Shown here piece by piece: positions 52,095 through 59,526 of a DNA stretch of 64,000 nt. Made by a program: the position numbers and the translations under genes. The DNA is taken from the IMG/VR virus record IMGVR_UViG_3300031760_000009, positions 1-64,000 of that record. One strand, given 5' to 3'. Source of the DNA: a virus. Taxonomy: Duplodnaviria; Caudoviricetes. The notes beneath the pieces are model-generated. The model was given only the letters and a program-made list of their open reading frames with translations. It did no database searches and had not been told where the DNA came from. Every line of letters begins with the position of its first letter. The first letter of the stretch is position 1.

Positions 52095-53202
52095 CTATAT
52101 TGCTCCTGTCAACAAATACGTGCATTGTGTCTTGATTTAATGTTATACGTTCACCAGTAAGTGTCATACATACAACATTACCAGCATTGTGATAATCGAC
52201 TTTTGCATAAATCTGTTCATTTTTATGAAAGACTGATACAATATCACCGTGATTTAATCCAGAATAATCAGTTATATATTCAAAGTTTTCCGACTTCATA
52301 AATGTATTAAATTCGGATAAATATGTAGAAACAGGCAGTTTTATATTAATTGCAAGGTCATTGAAATTTATATAACCTTTCATAATATCTTTAACATTAT
52401 TTGCAAACCTGTTATATTTCGGGTCTTTTGTCCGTGCATACTCACCCTTATAGTAATAATACTGTTCAAGCCAAGTATTTATACTGTCATATTCATAATC
52501 CTGTGGTACATTCTTCCTACCATTAACAGAATTGAAATTATTAAGTACAAAATCAAGATATTCACTGTTGTTATCATATCTTAATCTGCATTTACAATTA
52601 CATAAACATTCTGTATATCCAGACTTGGGTATCGTAGGCAACGCCTTTTTCGTATATGGACTGTTGTGTGCCAATGACAGACAGCTATGACAATGCTTGT
52701 CAGTACTCCCTAATATCCAGTATATATGTGAATCTTCTGCAAGATATGCTATGTTTCCGAATGTAAAAAGACTGACAAGACTGTCTGAATACATCTTCAA
52801 ACGTCTGTTATATGGCATTTTACCACCACCAGACAATACATCATCGGCAAACTTTTCCATAAACCTACATTCAGAAGATACAAGACTCGAAAGCATACGG
52901 TTTTCATATTCTGTAAGATTCTTTTCTGTCTGCTGTGAATAAAGTTTACCTAAAAGGTAAGCATTTTTGAATGACGTGCTGATTGCTTCTTTCTGCATTG
53001 AAAGATATTCAGAACGGTTCAGCTTACCTTTTATGAAACTATTAAGATTACGACTTAAATCAAGAGAGTAATTCTGTCTAACTCTGTTAAATGTAGACAG
53101 ACAGGAAATCTTCGATGTAGAGGAACTGTTGACTGTCGTACCGACAGACAAGTTCCTTTTCATCGCAGATTTAGAAAATTTCTGTTCTTCAATTTCCATC
53201 AT
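52084..53202 (-). CDS. head morphogenesis protein (MuF/SPP1 gp7-like)
   Basis: W......HCHSC..LA...PY....P..P.....CLCNCKCRL; follows the portal. Confidence 0.7.
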   Translation of the reverse strand: MMEIEEQKFSKSAMKRNLSVGTTVNSSSTSKISCLSTFNRVRQNYSLDLSRNLNSFIKGKLNRSEYLSMQKEAISTSFKNAYLLGKLYSQQTEKNLTEYENRMLSSLVSSECRFMEKFADDVLSGGGKMPYNRRLKMYSDSLVSLFTFGNIAYLAEDSHIYWILGSTDKHCHSCLSLAHNSPYTKKALPTIPKSGYTECLCNCKCRLRYDNNSEYLDFVLNNFNSVNGRKNVPQDYEYDSINTWLEQYYYYKGEYARTKDPKYNRFANNVKDIMKGYINFNDLAINIKLPVSTYLSEFNTFMKSENFEYITDYSGLNHGDIVSVFHKNEQIYAKVDYHNAGNVVCMTLTGERITLNQDTMHVFVDRSNIDER

Positions 53203-54925
53203 AGCTTTGTAATATGTCTATAAGTGCTGTAACACTAGCCATCAGATTAGGATTCTTCTTGCACATTTCCATATGTTCCTGCCAAGACTTGAACTGTTCT
53301 GGAGTAAGCTTGTTTTCCATAATCTTCATCAGTTTTTCCTGATTCAATGATTCACGACCATGTTCACGGTTCCACTTAGCCCAACCGCTTTCATCATCAC
53401 CTTCACCAGTCTTGTTCTTATTTGTATTTGGTGCAGAATTTGGATTTTCTTTATTTTTAGCCTGAATTTCAGCTTGTGCTTCTGACTGTCTCAAACGGCG
53501 TTCATCTTCTTCATCACGCATTACTTCGACTCGTGATTTCAAATCTTCGGCTTCTGCATCAGTCATACCAAGTATCTTGGTATATACATACATATCATCA
53601 ACAACCTGCATATTCGTTTTAAGAATTTCAGCAACCTGTGCACGAAGTTTTGCGATTGTAGCCTTTCTTTCTTCATCGACTGTCAGACCTGTTGGATATG
53701 ATATTCTCAAATCGTTTTCATTAACATCAACACCTTCTATAAGAAGTATATTCTTATACAGTTTCTTAATCTGTGGTGCAATTATTGTCTGGATTCTTCG
53801 TATTCTTCTAAGGAAACCTGCAACCTGATTATCTGAAGTTGATTTGGAGTTCAAGTCGTTTTCCTTACCAATTAGAAGTTTCGGAGTTCCTGTAGAATAT
53901 ATCAGCTTATCCTGACAATACTTGATGTCATCAATATCTTTCAATGAATTACCTGTATTTGTCAATGGAATTACATTACCACCAGAACCCTGACGTGTTG
54001 GAACCATTATATCTTCTATAATAGACAATGGGTTATAATCCCAGTTGAATTTACCTGTTCTTGGGTCGTAATATTTCCTACGCATTATACGTTTCTTGTA
54101 CATATCCAAGAAATCCAATGCTTCTTTACCCTGTAATTCACCAACGTCAACTATCATTGCATAGTTCTGATTCGCTCTTGAAAGACGGGTAATCATCATA
54201 CCTTCTTCCATAAGCTTGACCTGTTTATACAGAGTTCTTGAATTTTCAAGCATCGACTGACCTTTACCGTATTTGGTAAATCTTTCACGGTCTGTATTAA
54301 GACAGAGATGGAAAATTTCAGTGTCCTGAAATACTGAATGTACCTGACCATCGATTTCCTGTACAAGAACATCTCCGACTGTTGCTGGAAATCCATTAAC
54401 AAGTATTGGAATACAGGTCTTTATAGGTATATTTCTGAATCCAAGAAACTTGTTTCCTGTTACATTAGTAACAAGTTCCTCGAAATTATCGCCATATTTG
54501 AGCATTGCACGTACCATTGGGAAAAGCTTTTCCTGTAGAGAAACACGTGTTTCAATCTCATCTATCTTAGCCTGTACATTCGGGTCATCATGCATTACCT
54601 TTACAACACGGCTTTCATCGTCATCGGTATTCGGATATATGATATAATCTGCATTAACATCAAGAGCCGCCTTTATTTCAGGAACTTCCAAATCCATCTG
54701 ATTAAACTCTTCATATCGTACACCGTCTTTACCATCGACATAAAGTTCTTTCTTTATCTTGTTACCCCAATAGTCATTCATCTGTATATATGCGTAATCA
54801 TCGGGATTACTAACAGAACGACCACTATCGGGCTTTTCGTCACGGTCGTTTTTACTGACGGGTTGTTTTTTATCTTCGATACGGCTATATCCAAAATAGC
54901 CAAAAAGATTATCAATTAATCCCAT
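53189..54925 (-). CDS. portal protein, T4 gp20-like
   Basis: PEI..ALD; LMEE.MMI.RLSRA..VDVGEL....A; EDI.VP.R.G; DIDDIKY.QDKL. Confidence 0.88.
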   Translation of the reverse strand: MGLIDNLFGYFGYSRIEDKKQPVSKNDRDEKPDSGRSVSNPDDYAYIQMNDYWGNKIKKELYVDGKDGVRYEEFNQMDLEVPEIKAALDVNADYIIYPNTDDDESRVVKVMHDDPNVQAKIDEIETRVSLQEKLFPMVRAMLKYGDNFEELVTNVTGNKFLGFRNIPIKTCIPILVNGFPATVGDVLVQEIDGQVHSVFQDTEIFHLCLNTDRERFTKYGKGQSMLENSRTLYKQVKLMEEGMMITRLSRANQNYAMIVDVGELQGKEALDFLDMYKKRIMRRKYYDPRTGKFNWDYNPLSIIEDIMVPTRQGSGGNVIPLTNTGNSLKDIDDIKYCQDKLIYSTGTPKLLIGKENDLNSKSTSDNQVAGFLRRIRRIQTIIAPQIKKLYKNILLIEGVDVNENDLRISYPTGLTVDEERKATIAKLRAQVAEILKTNMQVVDDMYVYTKILGMTDAEAEDLKSRVEVMRDEEDERRLRQSEAQAEIQAKNKENPNSAPNTNKNKTGEGDDESGWAKWNREHGRESLNQEKLMKIMENKLTPEQFKSWQEHMEMCKKNPNLMASVTALIDILQSYDGN

Positions 54926-54964: not shown

Positions 54965-56932
54965 TCAATGGGTGTAAAGATATTGAAGCAATCTATCCTT
55001 TGCCTCATCACCTGTATTGAAAAGATTATTCTGATTCCTGTACGCTTCTGCATCATCTGTTTCAACAAACGACATCAGCAGGTCTTCATTACCATAACAG
55101 GGGTCAACGTGCATATTGTATATCAGCGAACCGAGAGCATCGGCAACGTCCTTGCTACCCATTACAGGGTGGTCAATCTTGTTCCTTACATAGTCACGTT
55201 CAAGTTCGTTAAGCTCAATTTCGACCTTTTCATGATATACACAACGGATTCTACCTTCATACAACGCACCTCTGAATGTTTCATACGGTTCTGTCGTCTT
55301 ATCCATTGATATATACGACATCTTGATACCCATGCGTTTCAACTGCTGTTCCATATCCTTAGACTGGAATCCGTCTGCCGAACCACGTCTTATAGAATAT
55401 CCACGCTTTCTCAACTGCTGAATCATATATCTCGCACGAGAAAGTTCAACTTCACCAAATTCCTTTTCTGGTCTTATTTCAAGTAACATTTCAACAACAC
55501 ACAGGGGCATCTTTTCATCTACATATTCAATCTGATTTGTTTCTGGATTGAATATCTCACGTTTTATATACTTGTATCCTTCTATATAACCACATGCAAA
55601 TCCCATACTGTCATGAGATATACCGATATCCATCGCTATATATCTTGGTTTTTCAGGGCACTTCGGTTTTGACATTATATATTCAGCGGCAACCCATTCT
55701 GGTTTAGGACTCAATGTTGCCTTATCAACCGAGAATACTCTTGGTAATGAACTGTCAAACATTTCGACAATCTTATCCTTGTTTCCGATGAATGGTTGTA
55801 CTGCATGTATGCCAAGACCTGCAATATCACGCATTGCGTTTTCAATGTCGCTGTCAAACTTGTCGTAAAAATCCATAGGAACATTTATTACATTTCCTTC
55901 AGGCACATCACCATCGTGTAATATTCTCGAACGTCTGTTCAAATCACCGACTTCAACTTGGAACTCTTCTTTTGAATATGCCTGTCTGTTGACTTTCCAC
56001 TGATTATAATCCATTATATAGACTTTCTGTACTCCAGTCTTACGTTCAGTTTCCAGACATTCTGCAATATGTTCTGATGTAAAATCATTTGGATATACAC
56101 GAGAAGAACCAAGATACAGGATTCCTGGCTTCTTATTGTATTTCATAAAACGTGAATCAAGTCTTCTTCTTAAACTTCTATATAATGTTCTTGCAGCATC
56201 GAACATGCCACCACTTTCACCCTCAGAACGTCTTGAGTTCTTGATTTTTCTGAAGAAGTTAGCTTCGTCCATTGCTCCAGAAAACAGGTTCAACCCTATG
56301 TTTGCACTATGCGAACTTGATGCAGGGAACAATTCTATCTTATTAGGAAACAAAAGAGAATCTGTAGATTTTCTTTTATTGAACATAAAGTTATCACGAA
56401 AATACGGTATATTCTCTATCATACCTTTAACAGTCTGGAATATGTTCTTCTTACCCTGTGTTTCAGTAACAGACACGATGATTATACCGATAGGAGAATC
56501 TGGAGCAAGCATATAGAATCTCTGAGGTGACTTGAAACAGCTAAGATAATACAACTGCCACAAGATACCGATTTCCATAAAGAAAGACTTACCCCAACCG
56601 ATTGAACCAGTCAGTACAACTTCCTGTATCGTTGATTCTGGAGAGTGTATCTTTATGAAATCTTCTTTCAGCTTCGGATACATAGATTCAACGACACCGA
56701 TACCTGTCTGTGGATTCACACCGCAATAATAAGGGTCTTCCAAGAACTGTTTAGGACTGACCATCTCCCATTTATAAGGGTCAGCTTCTTTTATAATTTC
56801 TCCATACAATTCCTGAATAGTTGACAAAACAAGTTCCTCATTACCTTTATATTCGGTAAGGAGCTGGTCGATGAAATCCTTATGAATCGTTTTCATAAGG
56901 GTATTTTTAATCGTTTCTAATTCCTTATTCAT
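54965..56932 (-). CDS. terminase large subunit
   Basis: Walker A GSIGWGKS, Walker B AMDEANF, nuclease IAMDIG, DGFQS, KIDHP..GSKDVADA. Confidence 0.9.
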   Translation of the reverse strand: MNKELETIKNTLMKTIHKDFIDQLLTEYKGNEELVLSTIQELYGEIIKEADPYKWEMVSPKQFLEDPYYCGVNPQTGIGVVESMYPKLKEDFIKIHSPESTIQEVVLTGSIGWGKSFFMEIGILWQLYYLSCFKSPQRFYMLAPDSPIGIIIVSVTETQGKKNIFQTVKGMIENIPYFRDNFMFNKRKSTDSLLFPNKIELFPASSSHSANIGLNLFSGAMDEANFFRKIKNSRRSEGESGGMFDAARTLYRSLRRRLDSRFMKYNKKPGILYLGSSRVYPNDFTSEHIAECLETERKTGVQKVYIMDYNQWKVNRQAYSKEEFQVEVGDLNRRSRILHDGDVPEGNVINVPMDFYDKFDSDIENAMRDIAGLGIHAVQPFIGNKDKIVEMFDSSLPRVFSVDKATLSPKPEWVAAEYIMSKPKCPEKPRYIAMDIGISHDSMGFACGYIEGYKYIKREIFNPETNQIEYVDEKMPLCVVEMLLEIRPEKEFGEVELSRARYMIQQLRKRGYSIRRGSADGFQSKDMEQQLKRMGIKMSYISMDKTTEPYETFRGALYEGRIRCVYHEKVEIELNELERDYVRNKIDHPVMGSKDVADALGSLIYNMHVDPCYGNEDLLMSFVETDDAEAYRNQNNLFNTGDEAKDRLLQYLYTH

Positions 56933-56984
56933 ACTTAAAATTTAACACAAAAATAAAATTTTGTAAAATGTTTAAATTTTTTTG

Positions 56985-57013
56985 TTGACTTGAAAAATTA
57001 ACTATGATAATAT
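56985..57013 (+). promoter_or_regulatory. sigma70-type promoter for the non-coding unit
   Basis: TTGACT-N17-TAATAT with TGn extension; same form as the promoter at 8525-8553. Confidence 0.7.
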
Positions 57014-57018
57014 GACAT

Positions 57019-57850
57019 TATGCGAATGGGAAATATGTGTCGCATTTATTTAATGTAGGTATATCCTGTTAAAGAACACATATAGAACACTTGCATACGA
57101 GGCGTAGTCTTGGACATACAGCTACTAGTGATGCTGTTACGGCACTTGCAGGGCGTACGTAACATTTCGACAAGCTAGGTTCGATTCATTGGCAACAATG
57201 ACTTAGACTGTTAAGTTCCTACTGCAAGACGATACTCTTCAAAGTTATAGTGTGTATGAGGTTGCAAACTCATACACACAACACCACACAGTAATGTGTG
57301 AAGTTCAAATATCAACTTTGATAAATATAAGACTTTGATAAATAGCTAATAAAATTTTCGGGGTTTCAATCTCTGCATTGGTAATTCAATGGGTTGAACG
57401 GATGGTAAAACATCTCTGTAGTCGAAATAAAAACGACACTACCTGAATTTCAACAGAAAACTACGGTTTTACTGTATTATCATCATTAATTTATATTTCT
57501 GATGATAAGTTCCATAAACACATGACCATACCTGAAATATGGAATCATTATTGTTTATAGAATTGATTAACAATGTCTTTATGACAATAACCATATCTTA
57601 ATTGATATGTACAGAGAAATTATTGTTTTATGCCTTGTAAAACATATATTTCAAGTACGTTATTATTATGACTGATTTTCAATAAAATTATTCATATATT
57701 GTTAATCTACTTTAAAACTGTATTTTTCATTGAAATTCAAACCCCGAAAATTTTACCTATATAAATCTTATTATGTCTTGTTAACTACTTTCATATAATA
57801 AATTCCTTTTCTTTTAAAAAAGAGTTAAGCATGAGCTTAACTTTTTTTTT
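57019..57850 (+). ncRNA. putative large structured non-coding RNA (~830 nt)
   Basis: No ORF >=60 aa; >15 stems; GNRA and cUACGg loops on the + strand; long-range stems; promoter and terminator at its ends. Confidence 0.65.
57816..57850 (+). terminator. intrinsic terminator-like hairpin
   Basis: aaaaaagagttaagc-atga-gcttaac followed by T9. Confidence 0.65.
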
Positions 57851-58026
57851 AATTTTAGTTTTAATTGATTTTTAATGATTTTTAAAGATATATACGTTTT
57901 ACACGAGCGTGCACAGCTAAAGCTGTAGCGAGTGTAAAACTTCCCCTTGAGGGGTTAGGGGTGGTATTTTTGGTTACTTTTTTAAAAAGTAACATCAAAG
58001 ATTCTTCAGGCTCGAATTATGTACAA
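57816..58026 (+). other. origin-like element (copy 2, inverted relative to 8587-8960)
   Basis: Same motif order: ttaagc..gcttaa palindrome, T-rich tract, aaagatatat, hairpin, ttacttttt/aaaaagtaa hairpin, 22-mer. Confidence 0.5.
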
Positions 58027-58126
58027 ATCGTACATACATATCAAAATTCTACAACATAGAATCAAAGTTTATTAAAATACGCACATTGTGAAAAATTTCA
58101 CATGTTTTAAAAACAAAAACAAAAAA

Positions 58127-58162
58127 AAATAAAAGGCTATAAAATATATAGCCTTTTATTTT
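58127..58162. terminator. bidirectional terminator
   Basis: aaataaaaggctata...tatagccttttattt. Confidence 0.7.
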
Positions 58163-58168
58163 GATATC

Positions 58169-58570
58169 TTATAGAAATTTACCTGTTTTCAGAATAGTAT
58201 CTTTTATTTCATTATCTTCTTTTTCTTTTTTCATCATAGCTTTTATCTTTTCAGATTCATTATATGCTTCTTTTGTTATAAATTCTTTTTCTTCATCTGT
58301 AAGCATAAGATATGCGTATGCTGTTCTAAATAGATTTGCCTGTCGTTTACGGCATTTTCCACATTCGTCATTACATGTATCACATTTTTTCATATCTTCT
58401 AAGATTCCTGTCTGTGAAAGACCTGCGGCAATACCACTCATAACACCTTTGTAGAATATTTCGGCGTTCAGTGGATTAGAAAACAATTCACTGTCAGCAG
58501 TTCTTATTGCGTTTATTGTGCAGTTACCGATTATATGCAGAACGTCCAAATGTGTCAGTTTATTCATCAA
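58169..58570 (-). CDS. hypothetical protein
   Basis: 133 aa, CDTC...CGKC; AGGAAG RBS. Confidence 0.6.
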   Translation of the reverse strand: MMNKLTHLDVLHIIGNCTINAIRTADSELFSNPLNAEIFYKGVMSGIAAGLSQTGILEDMKKCDTCNDECGKCRKRQANLFRTAYAYLMLTDEEKEFITKEAYNESEKIKAMMKKEKEDNEIKDTILKTGKFL

Positions 58571-59009
58571 ATTTTACTTCCTTTCTTAATTTTTTAAGTT
58601 CTTTCATAGATTCCCTGTAGCGTATGTACTTTTCAGCACGTTTTCTGTCTACATATACATGAATACCTATTTTTAGTTTATCTCCAAACATACCAAGATT
58701 TATCTGATGTGATATATATGTATCATCGCATCCGCTACGAGCAACAAGTTCCTGTCTGCTAATGTAACCATCTACATTTGGTGCTTCTGCTTGACATCGC
58801 TGTTTTCTTGTTATTTCCTGAACTTCTTCAATTGGTATAAACCAGCAATGTTTGATGAAAACCGCATTTGGATATACACCCTGTTTAATACGATTTTTGA
58901 CTGTAACCATATTGACACCATACTTTTCAGCAATTTCACGCAATGTCATATATTTGGTTCGGTCTATTTCATAATTCCTGGACCATTTTTGTTTTGTTTG
59001 TTGTTCCAT
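58560..59009 (-). CDS. tandem HTH DNA-binding protein (start MEQQT)
   Basis: YMTLREIAEKYGVN..TV..RI..G...A...W.IP and a second YIS..EL...SG unit. Confidence 0.7.
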   Translation of the reverse strand: MEQQTKQKWSRNYEIDRTKYMTLREIAEKYGVNMVTVKNRIKQGVYPNAVFIKHCWFIPIEEVQEITRKQRCQAEAPNVDGYISRQELVARSGCDDTYISHQINLGMFGDKLKIGIHVYVDRKRAEKYIRYRESMKELKKLRKEVKFDE

Positions 59010-59042
59010 TTGAAATTCCCCTTTCCGTATTTTCATAATTAT

Positions 59043-59126
59043 AATATAGCATAACTCATTTAGTAATGTCAACATATTTTTTAAATTATTTTATCATTGA
59101 CAAAGACCTTTTTAAAATGCTATAGT
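59043..59126. promoter_or_regulatory. divergent sigma70 promoters
   Basis: TTGACA on both strands (59067-59072 minus, 59097-59102 plus) with TATATT/TATAGT at 18-nt spacing. Confidence 0.55.
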
Positions 59127-59187
59127 ATTACCAATTTTAAAACACGTTATAACTTTTATATATTGTCTTATACGGAAAGGACATAAA

Positions 59188-59526
59188 ATGAGTTTCAGTT
59201 ATAAACCTCTATGGAAAAAACTTATCGACCTTGATATGAGACGTTCGGATATTCCTAAATTTGCTGGTGTGAACAATGTTCAACTGTCAAAAATGGTCAA
59301 AGGTGAATGTATAGATATGAAATATATTCATAAATTATGTGAAGCTTTTGACTGCAATATAGAAGGAATTGTTGAATTTGTTAATGATGGTCAGCTTGTA
59401 AGACCATCTGAAGAATATCGAAGACGTAGCGAAGGATTCAAGAACAGTGCTTATTATAAGCAAAAGATGGAAGAACGTGAGAAAAACAGTGGTGATTGGC
59501 TACCAGAACTGGAGCTTGATGACTAA
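59188..59526 (+). CDS. Cro/CI-type HTH regulator (HTH_26-like)
   Basis: SYKPLWKKLID..M....KLCEAFDCNIEGIVEF. Confidence 0.8.
   Translation: MSFSYKPLWKKLIDLDMRRSDIPKFAGVNNVQLSKMVKGECIDMKYIHKLCEAFDCNIEGIVEFVNDGQLVRPSEEYRRRSEGFKNSAYYKQKMEEREKNSGDWLPELELDD

Follow-up and report, generated by a model that had tools for sequence, protein, structure and literature searches.

The window analysed here is the first 64 kb of the 123-kb phage record IMGVR_UViG_3300031760_000009 of the IMG/VR database (completeness estimate 75%). The sequencing run that matches the record best is a bovine gut metagenome, and the structural genes of the phage (portal, capsid and protease) are T4-like. The subject of this report is a candidate gene for a large structured noncoding RNA, located on the + strand in an intergenic gap (56933–58168) between the gene for the large terminase subunit (terL) and two genes designated p133 and p171 (Table 1). 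Because terL and both of the right-hand genes are − strand genes, the RNA points away from terL (divergent) and towards p133 (convergent); an earlier note on this DNA had placed it head-to-head with terL, an orientation that is corrected here. Beyond p133 and p171 lie + strand genes of early type, which encode a helix-turn-helix (HTH) regulator, a Dam methylase and an HD protein, and the locus coincides with a switch in gene orientation and with the minimum of the cumulative GC skew at ∼58–59 kb.

The gap contains no open reading frame longer than 41 residues under translation table 11 and no long frame when TGA is read as tryptophan or TAG or TAA as glutamine, and protein coding under alternative codes was rejected on this basis. 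Contigs were fetched for the 27 members of the 90%-identity TerL cluster. The homologous gap was located at eight loci, which represent about five sequence types (the window, L033, L038, L040/L047 and L043/L044/L045), and gene callers place no gene in it on any of the related contigs fetched. Conserved blocks of the RNA region also contain insertions and deletions of 1 and 2 nt, which count as evidence of noncoding sequence. The unit had been described as free of reading frames, and this holds under four genetic codes and in the homologous gaps.

Table 1. Coordinates of the RNA gene, its parts and the adjacent features.
Feature	Positions	Strand	Description
T4-type portal gene	53189–54925	−	Left of the gap
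terL	54965–56932	−	PHROG terminase large subunit; left of the gap
σ70-type promoter	56985–57013	+	TTGACT, 17-nt spacer, TG-extended TAATAT; predicted start ∼57019–57021
Candidate RNA gene, whole	57019–57850	+	∼830 nt here, ∼770–920 nt in variants
5′ hairpin domain	57019–57097	+	Helices 57019–57028/57088–57097 and 57033–57040/57076–57083
Long-range helix closing the RNA body	57098–57108 with 57770–57780	+	11 pairs, 100% paired
Conserved G+C-richer core domain	57109–57236	+	Helix 57145–57151/57222–57228; helix 57169–57179/57202–57212 with UUCGAU bulge; GNRA-capped hairpin 57186–57201
Optional three-hairpin subdomain	57237–57338	+	Closing helix 57237–57244/57331–57338; hairpins 57250–57279 (loop GUUGCAAA) and 57285–57300
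Multibranch 3′ domain (∼400 nt)	57350–57755	+	16–17-bp closing stem 57350–57365/57740–57755; nested long helices and local hairpins
Intrinsic terminator	57816–57850	+	12–15-bp hairpin at 57816–57849, then 9-T run
Downstream element, possibly associated with the RNA	57895–57975	+	Long hairpin with tandem G.A internal loop, then CCCC/GGGG terminator-like hairpin with T-run
p133, then p171		−	133-residue protein without match, then 171-residue HTH protein; right of the gap

Transcription of the unit

Promoter-like sites occur about as often as expected in DNA this rich in A+T (11 observed versus 11.1 expected), so the promoter match alone is at chance level. The block from −35 to −10 is nearly invariant in the eight-variant alignment, and the 50 nt 5′ of this block are variable at many positions. 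Of the promoter claimed in the earlier note, the site itself (TTGACT-N17-TAATAT) is thus present, but its support comes from this conservation and from the ends of the RNA contigs described below, and not from the match. At the other end, the hairpin plus T-run in which the unit was said to terminate was found as described; its stem carries a compensatory U-A to G-C exchange in L033, and the hairpin is predicted to terminate transcription of the − strand too.

Six RNA sequencing runs, from six studies, hold part of the stretch as judged by sampled words, and contigs were aligned for two of them from separate studies, a metatranscriptome (X19) and a size-fractionated RNA-seq run (X24). The X19 contigs span 57033–57472 (depth 16.5, ∼94% identity), 57473–57574 and 57632–57775; those of X24 span 57420–57574 and, at a depth of 15.4, 57059–57282, the latter interrupted at 57189/57190 by an insert of 233 nt. 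Jointly, they reach 57033–57775 at ∼94% identity and a depth of 15–16. The contigs end at 57033 and ∼57043 on the left, 15–25 nt inside the predicted start and never entering the promoter, and stop at the terminator on the right, where the depth falls to zero right of 57862. No contig of either run covers terL (56400–56938). Right of 57862 the cover in X24 is zero, including p133, and that in X19 consists of low-complexity matches at 58171–58324 and a trace (depth 3.3) at 58556–58632; the zero cover at 57863–58170 is an absence in assembled contigs only. Run X3, for which 33% of the sampled words were listed, aligned as short low-complexity pieces and was not counted for the distribution. The proposal of a transcribed unit is therefore borne out by contigs from two studies that cover the RNA unit and neither terL nor the gene on its other side.

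Host RNA polymerase would transcribe the RNA from the σ70-type promoter to the intrinsic terminator and, given the use of this conserved promoter by the host enzyme, the RNA is probably made early or constitutively. Relatives of the phage use consensus TTGACA/TATAAT promoters together with Shine–Dalgarno sites, which suggests a host with canonical σ70 promoters, perhaps a Firmicute.

Fold and strand of the RNA

The 832-nt stretch 57019–57850 has a predicted folding energy of −226 kcal/mol on the + strand, compared with −155 ± 7 kcal/mol for dinucleotide shuffles (z = −10), in agreement with the earlier proposal of an ornately folded unit; z for the − strand is −6.8. RNAalifold gives 222 consensus pairs for an alignment of eight sequences (A1), with 98.5% of the cells of the consensus structure paired. 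Double compensatory changes are present in 15 pairs, versus 7.6 ± 1.8 in shuffles (0 of 500 shuffles reach 15), and a slid control in which the partners were shifted by 1–3 columns retains 0–3 such pairs, so that the compensatory changes expected of homologues stand above both controls. The covarying helices bring together segments up to 680 nt apart.

In the 5′ hairpin domain, the pair 57024/57092 is G.U in four variants, A-U in three and G-C in one, and the pair 57037/57079 alternates between G-C and A-U. The first stem proposed in the earlier note (atgcga/tcgcat) is disrupted in the L040 and L043 types, and the conserved pairing is instead the outer helix listed in Table 1. Likewise, the complementarity between atatgtgt and acacatat, read earlier as a possible pseudoknot or switch, belongs to one long conserved 5′ hairpin. 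The long-range helix that closes the RNA body contains three to four G.U pairs, and three one-sided changes within it (GU/GC, CG/UG and GC/GU) keep the pairing solely on the + strand. In the core domain, the tetraloop 57192–57195 varies only within the GNRA consensus (GCAA, GUAA and GUGA), the pair 57169/57212 flips between U.G and G.U, and a possible additional helix (57138–57141/57158–57161) has two covarying pairs.

The closing helix of the three-hairpin subdomain covaries, being UCAAAGUU/GACUUUGA in the window phage and UCAACCA/UGGUUGA in the L043 type, and in L040 and L047 a single capped stem (UCAAAG-AUAA-CUUUGA) stands in place of the entire subdomain. In the L043 type, hairpin 57250–57279 shows three compensatory G-C/A-U exchanges; a contig from an RNA library adds a fourth (57251 T>G with 57278 A>C) and leaves the loop unchanged, and hairpin 57285–57300 has two. 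The 8-nt loop of the former (GUUGCAAA, 57261–57268) holds the palindrome UUGCAA and is the same across three versions of the covarying stem. A second invariant loop, AGCUACUA, holds AGCU. Self-association of the RNA through the UUGCAA loop is possible, though we regard it as doubtful; natural variants without this hairpin exist.

The ∼400-nt 3′ domain was described earlier as closed by a perfect stem, and the 24-nt inverted repeat 57350–57373/57732–57755 confirms this. One pair of the closing stem runs through U-A, U.G and C-G across the variants and one G-C changes to G.U. Some variants carry inserts after 57571, of ∼70 nt in L038 and L045. Among the local stems named earlier, tcattg-GCAA-caatga, gtgtgtatgag/ctcatacacac and cacaca-GTAA-tgtgtg are real, the last two with compensatory changes. 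The hairpin aaaac-TACG-gtttt (cUACGg) can also form but competes with an invariant 28-bp long-range helix (57444–57476/57708–57739), and there is no variation at this place to discriminate between the two. A miniature inverted-repeat element or transposon remnant was considered for the inverted repeat and rejected: no direct duplication flanks 57350/57755, the genome of the phage holds no second copy and the arms covary as an RNA helix. An 18-mer from the repeat has two matches in IMG/VR, neither with extended similarity.

Several observations point to the + strand as that of the RNA: loop variation confined to GNRA, the U.G/G.U flip, the G.U-rich long-range helix, the wobble intermediates of the closing stem, the conservation of the promoter, the terminator and the alifold energy (−327.8 for the + strand versus −302.4 for the − strand). 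Read on the − strand, whose prediction has 188 pairs in common with that of the + strand, the tetraloops would be UUGC, UUAC and UCAC, and A.C mismatches would take the place of the G.U pairs. These loops and mismatches weigh against the reading of the unit as a − strand transcript, namely a long structured leader at the 5′ end of the terL late operon. Such a leader would fit the − strand orientation of terL and of both genes right of the gap, the promoter-like sites of that strand at 58044–58016 and 58075–58046 and the fold of the − strand; however, the RNA contigs stop just inside the + strand start without entering terL, the hairpin at 57816–57849 would also terminate the − strand transcript, and sister phages express terL without a leader of this kind. 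We consider a leader of the terL operon highly improbable.

Variation, distribution and neighbouring elements

The gap is 80–90% identical in the alignment, compared with 71–82% for the third codon positions of terL, and the segment 57340–57540 is identical in all eight sequences. Four segments are as conserved as terL or more so (the core at 57085–57240, 57340–57560, 57690–57790 and 57895–57990), and the dips in the conservation profile are clean insertions or deletions. When L038 and L045 are compared with the window, p133 and p171 are 25–27% identical and p112, the product of a divergent gene for a Cro/C1-type HTH protein, is 43–47% identical, while the RNA stays at 80–87%. Because the adjacent proteins diverge in this manner, selection acts on the RNA region itself and not on its neighbourhood.

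The three neighbouring genes p133, p171 and p112 behave as hypervariable alleles (58169–59526 in the window, 700–1710 in L038 and 700–1690 in L045), with 25–47% amino-acid identity between phages in which the flanking RNA, Dam and TerL are 75–100% identical, a pattern that recalls swapped immunity or regulatory specificities. A CxxC...CxxC motif is present in p133. Beyond the HTH, neither p133 nor p171 has an informative match in Pfam, PHROG, NCBIfam, PADLOC or the PDB, and the match of one of these proteins to a small-terminase PHROG covers the HTH only.

The RNA varies by whole modules, and in L045 the 5′ part is of the L043 type but the insert is that of L038. Clean gain and loss of the three-hairpin module, the insert after 57571 and that at 57189/57190 in an RNA contig, the position in an accessory and mosaic region and the absence of the RNA from sister phages would suit a modular decoy or anti-defence RNA, that is, a scaffold whose swappable inserts mimic or sequester host factors (for example as antitoxin-like or tRNA-like modules). 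It is the scaffold that is most conserved, however, and not the inserts; neither the window nor an insert-bearing variant has an Rfam antitoxin, tRNA or other match, ARAGORN returns nothing at normal thresholds and only inconsistent calls at relaxed ones, and no defence-related neighbour was found. We therefore consider a decoy function distinctly improbable.

Searches of the 26 loci with TerL relatives at 40–84% identity, from IMG/VR and the metagenomes of the JGI, with the gap as query (blastn and nhmmer) gave no similarity; these distant relatives carry other content upstream of terL. In the group at 83–84%, genes for ribonucleotide reductase, dUTPase and ThyX stand directly upstream of terL. 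Within the same 90% TerL cluster as the window, L042, which equals L048, has genes for Dam, HD, HTH, dNMP kinase, ribonucleotide reductase, dUTPase, ThyX and TerL all in one direction, and the RNA was not found in the 8 kb upstream of its terL. Relative to L048, the early block of the window is inverted, with the RNA at the junction. This block of ∼8.8 kb (56933 to 65697: the RNA, p133, p171, HTH, Dam, HD, HTH, ribonucleotide reductase, dUTPase and ThyX) is also inverted with respect to L019 and L020, the RNA gap forming one breakpoint, and in sister phages of the L019, L020 and L048 types the genes for ribonucleotide reductase, dUTPase and ThyX lead straight into terL.

Public phage genomes contain no match to the RNA gap. 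Exact patterns from three conserved blocks have no match in other IMG/VR records, and two exact patterns from invariant blocks have none in 185,579 species genomes. The RNA was nevertheless recovered from at least a dozen independent assemblies, and on present sampling it appears to be narrowly distributed, within a single lineage of T4-like ruminant-gut phages. Since sister phages with TerL of the same 90% cluster lack the RNA at the terL locus, an essential packaging role like that of pRNA seems unlikely, and the RNA would have an accessory function instead of being an essential part of the packaging motor.

The position of the gap at an inversion breakpoint relative to L019, L020 and L048, together with the termination of several contigs in or near it, raises the question of whether the element acts mainly as DNA, its transcript being incidental and its inverted repeats serving, at the junction of a rearrangement, as pac or cruciform sites or as sites of protein binding or recombination. 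Both strands do fold better than shuffles, and most helices are purely Watson–Crick and predicted on both strands. GNRA-preserving variation, conserved G.U pairs and a flip from U.G to G.U would, on the other hand, be meaningless in duplex DNA; covariation between helices far apart and RNA-library cover specific to the unit speak against it too, no repeated family of binding sites is present inside the unit, and the adjoining hypervariable p133 and p171 alleles explain the contig ends. A mainly DNA-level role is accordingly regarded as highly improbable.

Two further elements lie right of the terminator. At 57858–57888, between the terminator and the conserved downstream element, are three direct repeats in phase, each A/T-rich and 10 nt long (TTTTAATTGA, TTTTTAATGA and TTTTTAAAGA), that look like bent DNA or an unwinding element and are kept in some variants only. 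The downstream element has a mean identity of 0.94. Its hairpin, GUUUUACA...UGUAAAAC, contains a symmetric internal part, CGAGC/GCGAG, with tandem G.A; the apical stem shows a compensatory change from AGC/GCU to GGC/GCC in L038, L043 and L045, and the terminator-like hairpin that follows is CCCC-UUGA-GGGG at 57944–57961. RNA-contig cover of the element is zero. The element could represent a second small RNA, an extension produced by read-through or a site acting at the DNA level. Just past p133, a perfect 16-bp hairpin flanked by A-runs and T-runs (58126–58162) looks like a bidirectional terminator; its sequence differs in each variant and the hairpin is retained.

This setting bears on the main rival to a trans-acting RNA, namely an origin transcript or primer RNA that conditions or primes replication at the A+T-rich phased repeats and conserved element (57850–57990), in the manner of ColE1 RNA II or of the R-loop origins oriF and oriG of T4. 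T4 origins use promoter transcripts, and the structural genes of the present phage are T4-like. The gene-orientation switch and cumulative GC skew minimum at ∼58–59 kb, the three phased repeats and the highly conserved segment 57895–57990 just past the terminator would all agree with an origin, as would the arrays of repeated palindromes or iterons that relatives with TerL at 70–72% identity hold in the same slot upstream of terL. Between the RNA and the A+T-rich DNA, however, stands a strong intrinsic terminator, at which the RNA contigs stop; the RNA appears to occur as a discrete species, the extensive selection on pairing within the molecule and on a GNRA loop favours a folded particle, gene orientation alone accounts for the skew switch, and sister phages lack the RNA at the terL locus. 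We thus consider an origin transcript unlikely.

In these 70–72% relatives (L005:2782–3573, L006:2937–3746, L018:4244–5000, L007:1–727 and L016:417–1079), four to six repeated palindromes or iterons, for example CTACTCTTTACGTAAAGAGTAG, are followed by a consensus TTGACA-17-TATAAT promoter and a small Cro-like HTH gene; the array may be an operator array or an origin. The TerL frames of some relatives are longer than the 655 residues of the window, with 1075 residues in L007 (722–3949) and L016 (1074–4301) and ∼794 in L011 (4992–7376), L012 (1043–3427) and L013 (3837–6215), lengths that point to a fusion or to the insertion of an intein or homing element.

Assignment and comparison with known RNAs

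A cmscan search of the whole window against Rfam 15 gave nothing at gathering scores. At E values of up to 10 for 56800–58300 and of up to 5 for the variants L038 and L040, the only matches were to eukaryotic snoRNAs and miRNAs at chance level. The earlier statement that the RNA has no assigned family thus stands for the window and two variants, and the lack of matches to Rfam models excludes ROOL, GOLLD, pRNA, group I and group II introns, RNase P, tmRNA and 6S RNA as detectable relatives. Our literature search found no description of this RNA. ARAGORN finds no tRNA in the 64-kb window and, across the entire record, no tmRNA either. tRNA-like modules were rejected, as eight variants gave none at default settings and only inconsistent calls with huge 'introns' with -ps80, and there was no RF00005 match. 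The only tRNA calls in the 123-kb record, at 117029–117125 and 117509–117593, lie ∼60 kb from the RNA; one is a tRNA-Tyr and the other an odd tRNA-like gene of 97 nt whose anticodon is unassigned. An antisense role towards targets in the phage's own genome was also rejected, the matches of 14–19 nt being at chance level.

We interpret 57019–57850 (+) as a stand-alone gene for an abundant noncoding RNA of ∼830 nt, which belongs to an uncatalogued family carried by a single lineage of T4-like ruminant-gut phages, and assign this reading a probability of about 0.72. The RNA is longer than 500 nt and noncoding, has a multi-junction fold supported by covariation and forms its own transcription unit, as large ornate noncoding RNAs generally do. 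On our analysis, the family, which is absent from Rfam 15, is best placed with the large ornate phage RNAs of the ROOL and GOLLD kind because it is of comparable size and modular, 'ornate' build and comes from phages of the rumen. The RNA folds into a hairpin at its 5′ end and then a body that the long-range helix closes, in which the GNRA core, the optional three-hairpin module and the 400-nt multibranch domain are arranged; it would accumulate as a stable folded particle that acts in trans, like ROOL and GOLLD.

Some points count against this interpretation. The function is wholly inferred, and neither a target nor a partner nor a catalytic motif came to light. Statistical support from covariation is modest, as it comes from about five independent sequence types of one narrow lineage and the shuffle control takes no account of relatedness; the largest helices do not vary and are hence neither supported nor refuted by covariation, and frequent recombination between variants may be partly behind the invariance. 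In the helices common to both strands, 10 G.U and 12 A.C cells were counted, which favours neither strand. The RNA evidence consists of assembled contigs, which give no strand, exact ends or quantitative level, and one RNA contig of 587 nt fits the stretch over 440 nt only. DNA contamination of the RNA libraries is also possible; the cover specific to the unit speaks against it, because contaminating DNA would also cover terL.

To our knowledge, bacteria and phages very rarely have structured noncoding RNAs of more than 500 nt; rRNA, group II introns, OLE, GOLLD, ROOL and raiA are among those known. The few large noncoding RNAs that have been studied proved to be ribozymes or unprecedented RNA-only cages. 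An RNA of ∼830 nt with a promoter, a terminator, a fold backed by covariation, modular variants and signs of high abundance in rumen RNA libraries is a ready substrate for electron cryomicroscopy, mass photometry and chemical probing by SHAPE, and a natural experiment is provided by sister phages that carry or lack the RNA while their packaging genes are near-identical. A bolder proposal, which we hold to be rather unlikely, is that the RNA founds a class of giant phage RNAs that form RNA-only multimers (through the UUGCAA loop and other contacts) or are catalytic, and that it functionally replaces the iteron and operator region of the relatives upstream of terL.

With phi29 pRNA, the RNA shares its phage origin, its structured nature and a gene near the packaging genes, and pRNA multimerizes by loop–loop pairing. 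pRNA is, however, ∼170 nt long and belongs to phi29-like podoviruses with protein-primed genomes, whereas the present phage is T4-like, the RNA has no Rfam match and sister phages of the same 90% TerL cluster have no such RNA beside terL. ColE1 RNA II and the T4 origin transcripts are likewise promoter-driven structured RNAs of several hundred nucleotides upstream of A+T-rich DNA, but here the terminator precedes the A+T-rich DNA, and no antisense partner of the RNA I type or RNase H context was seen.

GOLLD (RF01998) is closer in that it is ∼800 nt long and phage-encoded, combines a variable modular part with a conserved part and yields an abundant discrete transcript whose function is unknown. 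It differs in its occurrence, in lake water and Lactobacillales, and in its association with tRNAs, none being adjacent to or embedded in the present RNA, which has no match to the GOLLD model. ROOL, with an average length of 581 nt, is an ornate multi-junction RNA of unknown function that was first seen in cow rumen metagenomes and is often found in phages or prophages (RF03087; PMC5737381). Compared with ROOL, the present RNA is longer, has no covariance-model match at E values of up to 10, lies far from the nearest tRNA gene, in contrast to the typical location of ROOL near tRNA genes, and is found in one narrow phage lineage so far, versus three phyla for ROOL. Like ROOL, it is large, ornate, phage-borne and of rumen origin and forms a stand-alone transcription unit. 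It also contains a palindromic loop that does not vary; the RNA-only cages of ROOL and GOLLD are held together partly by symmetric palindromic kissing loops (10.1101/2024.12.08.627333).

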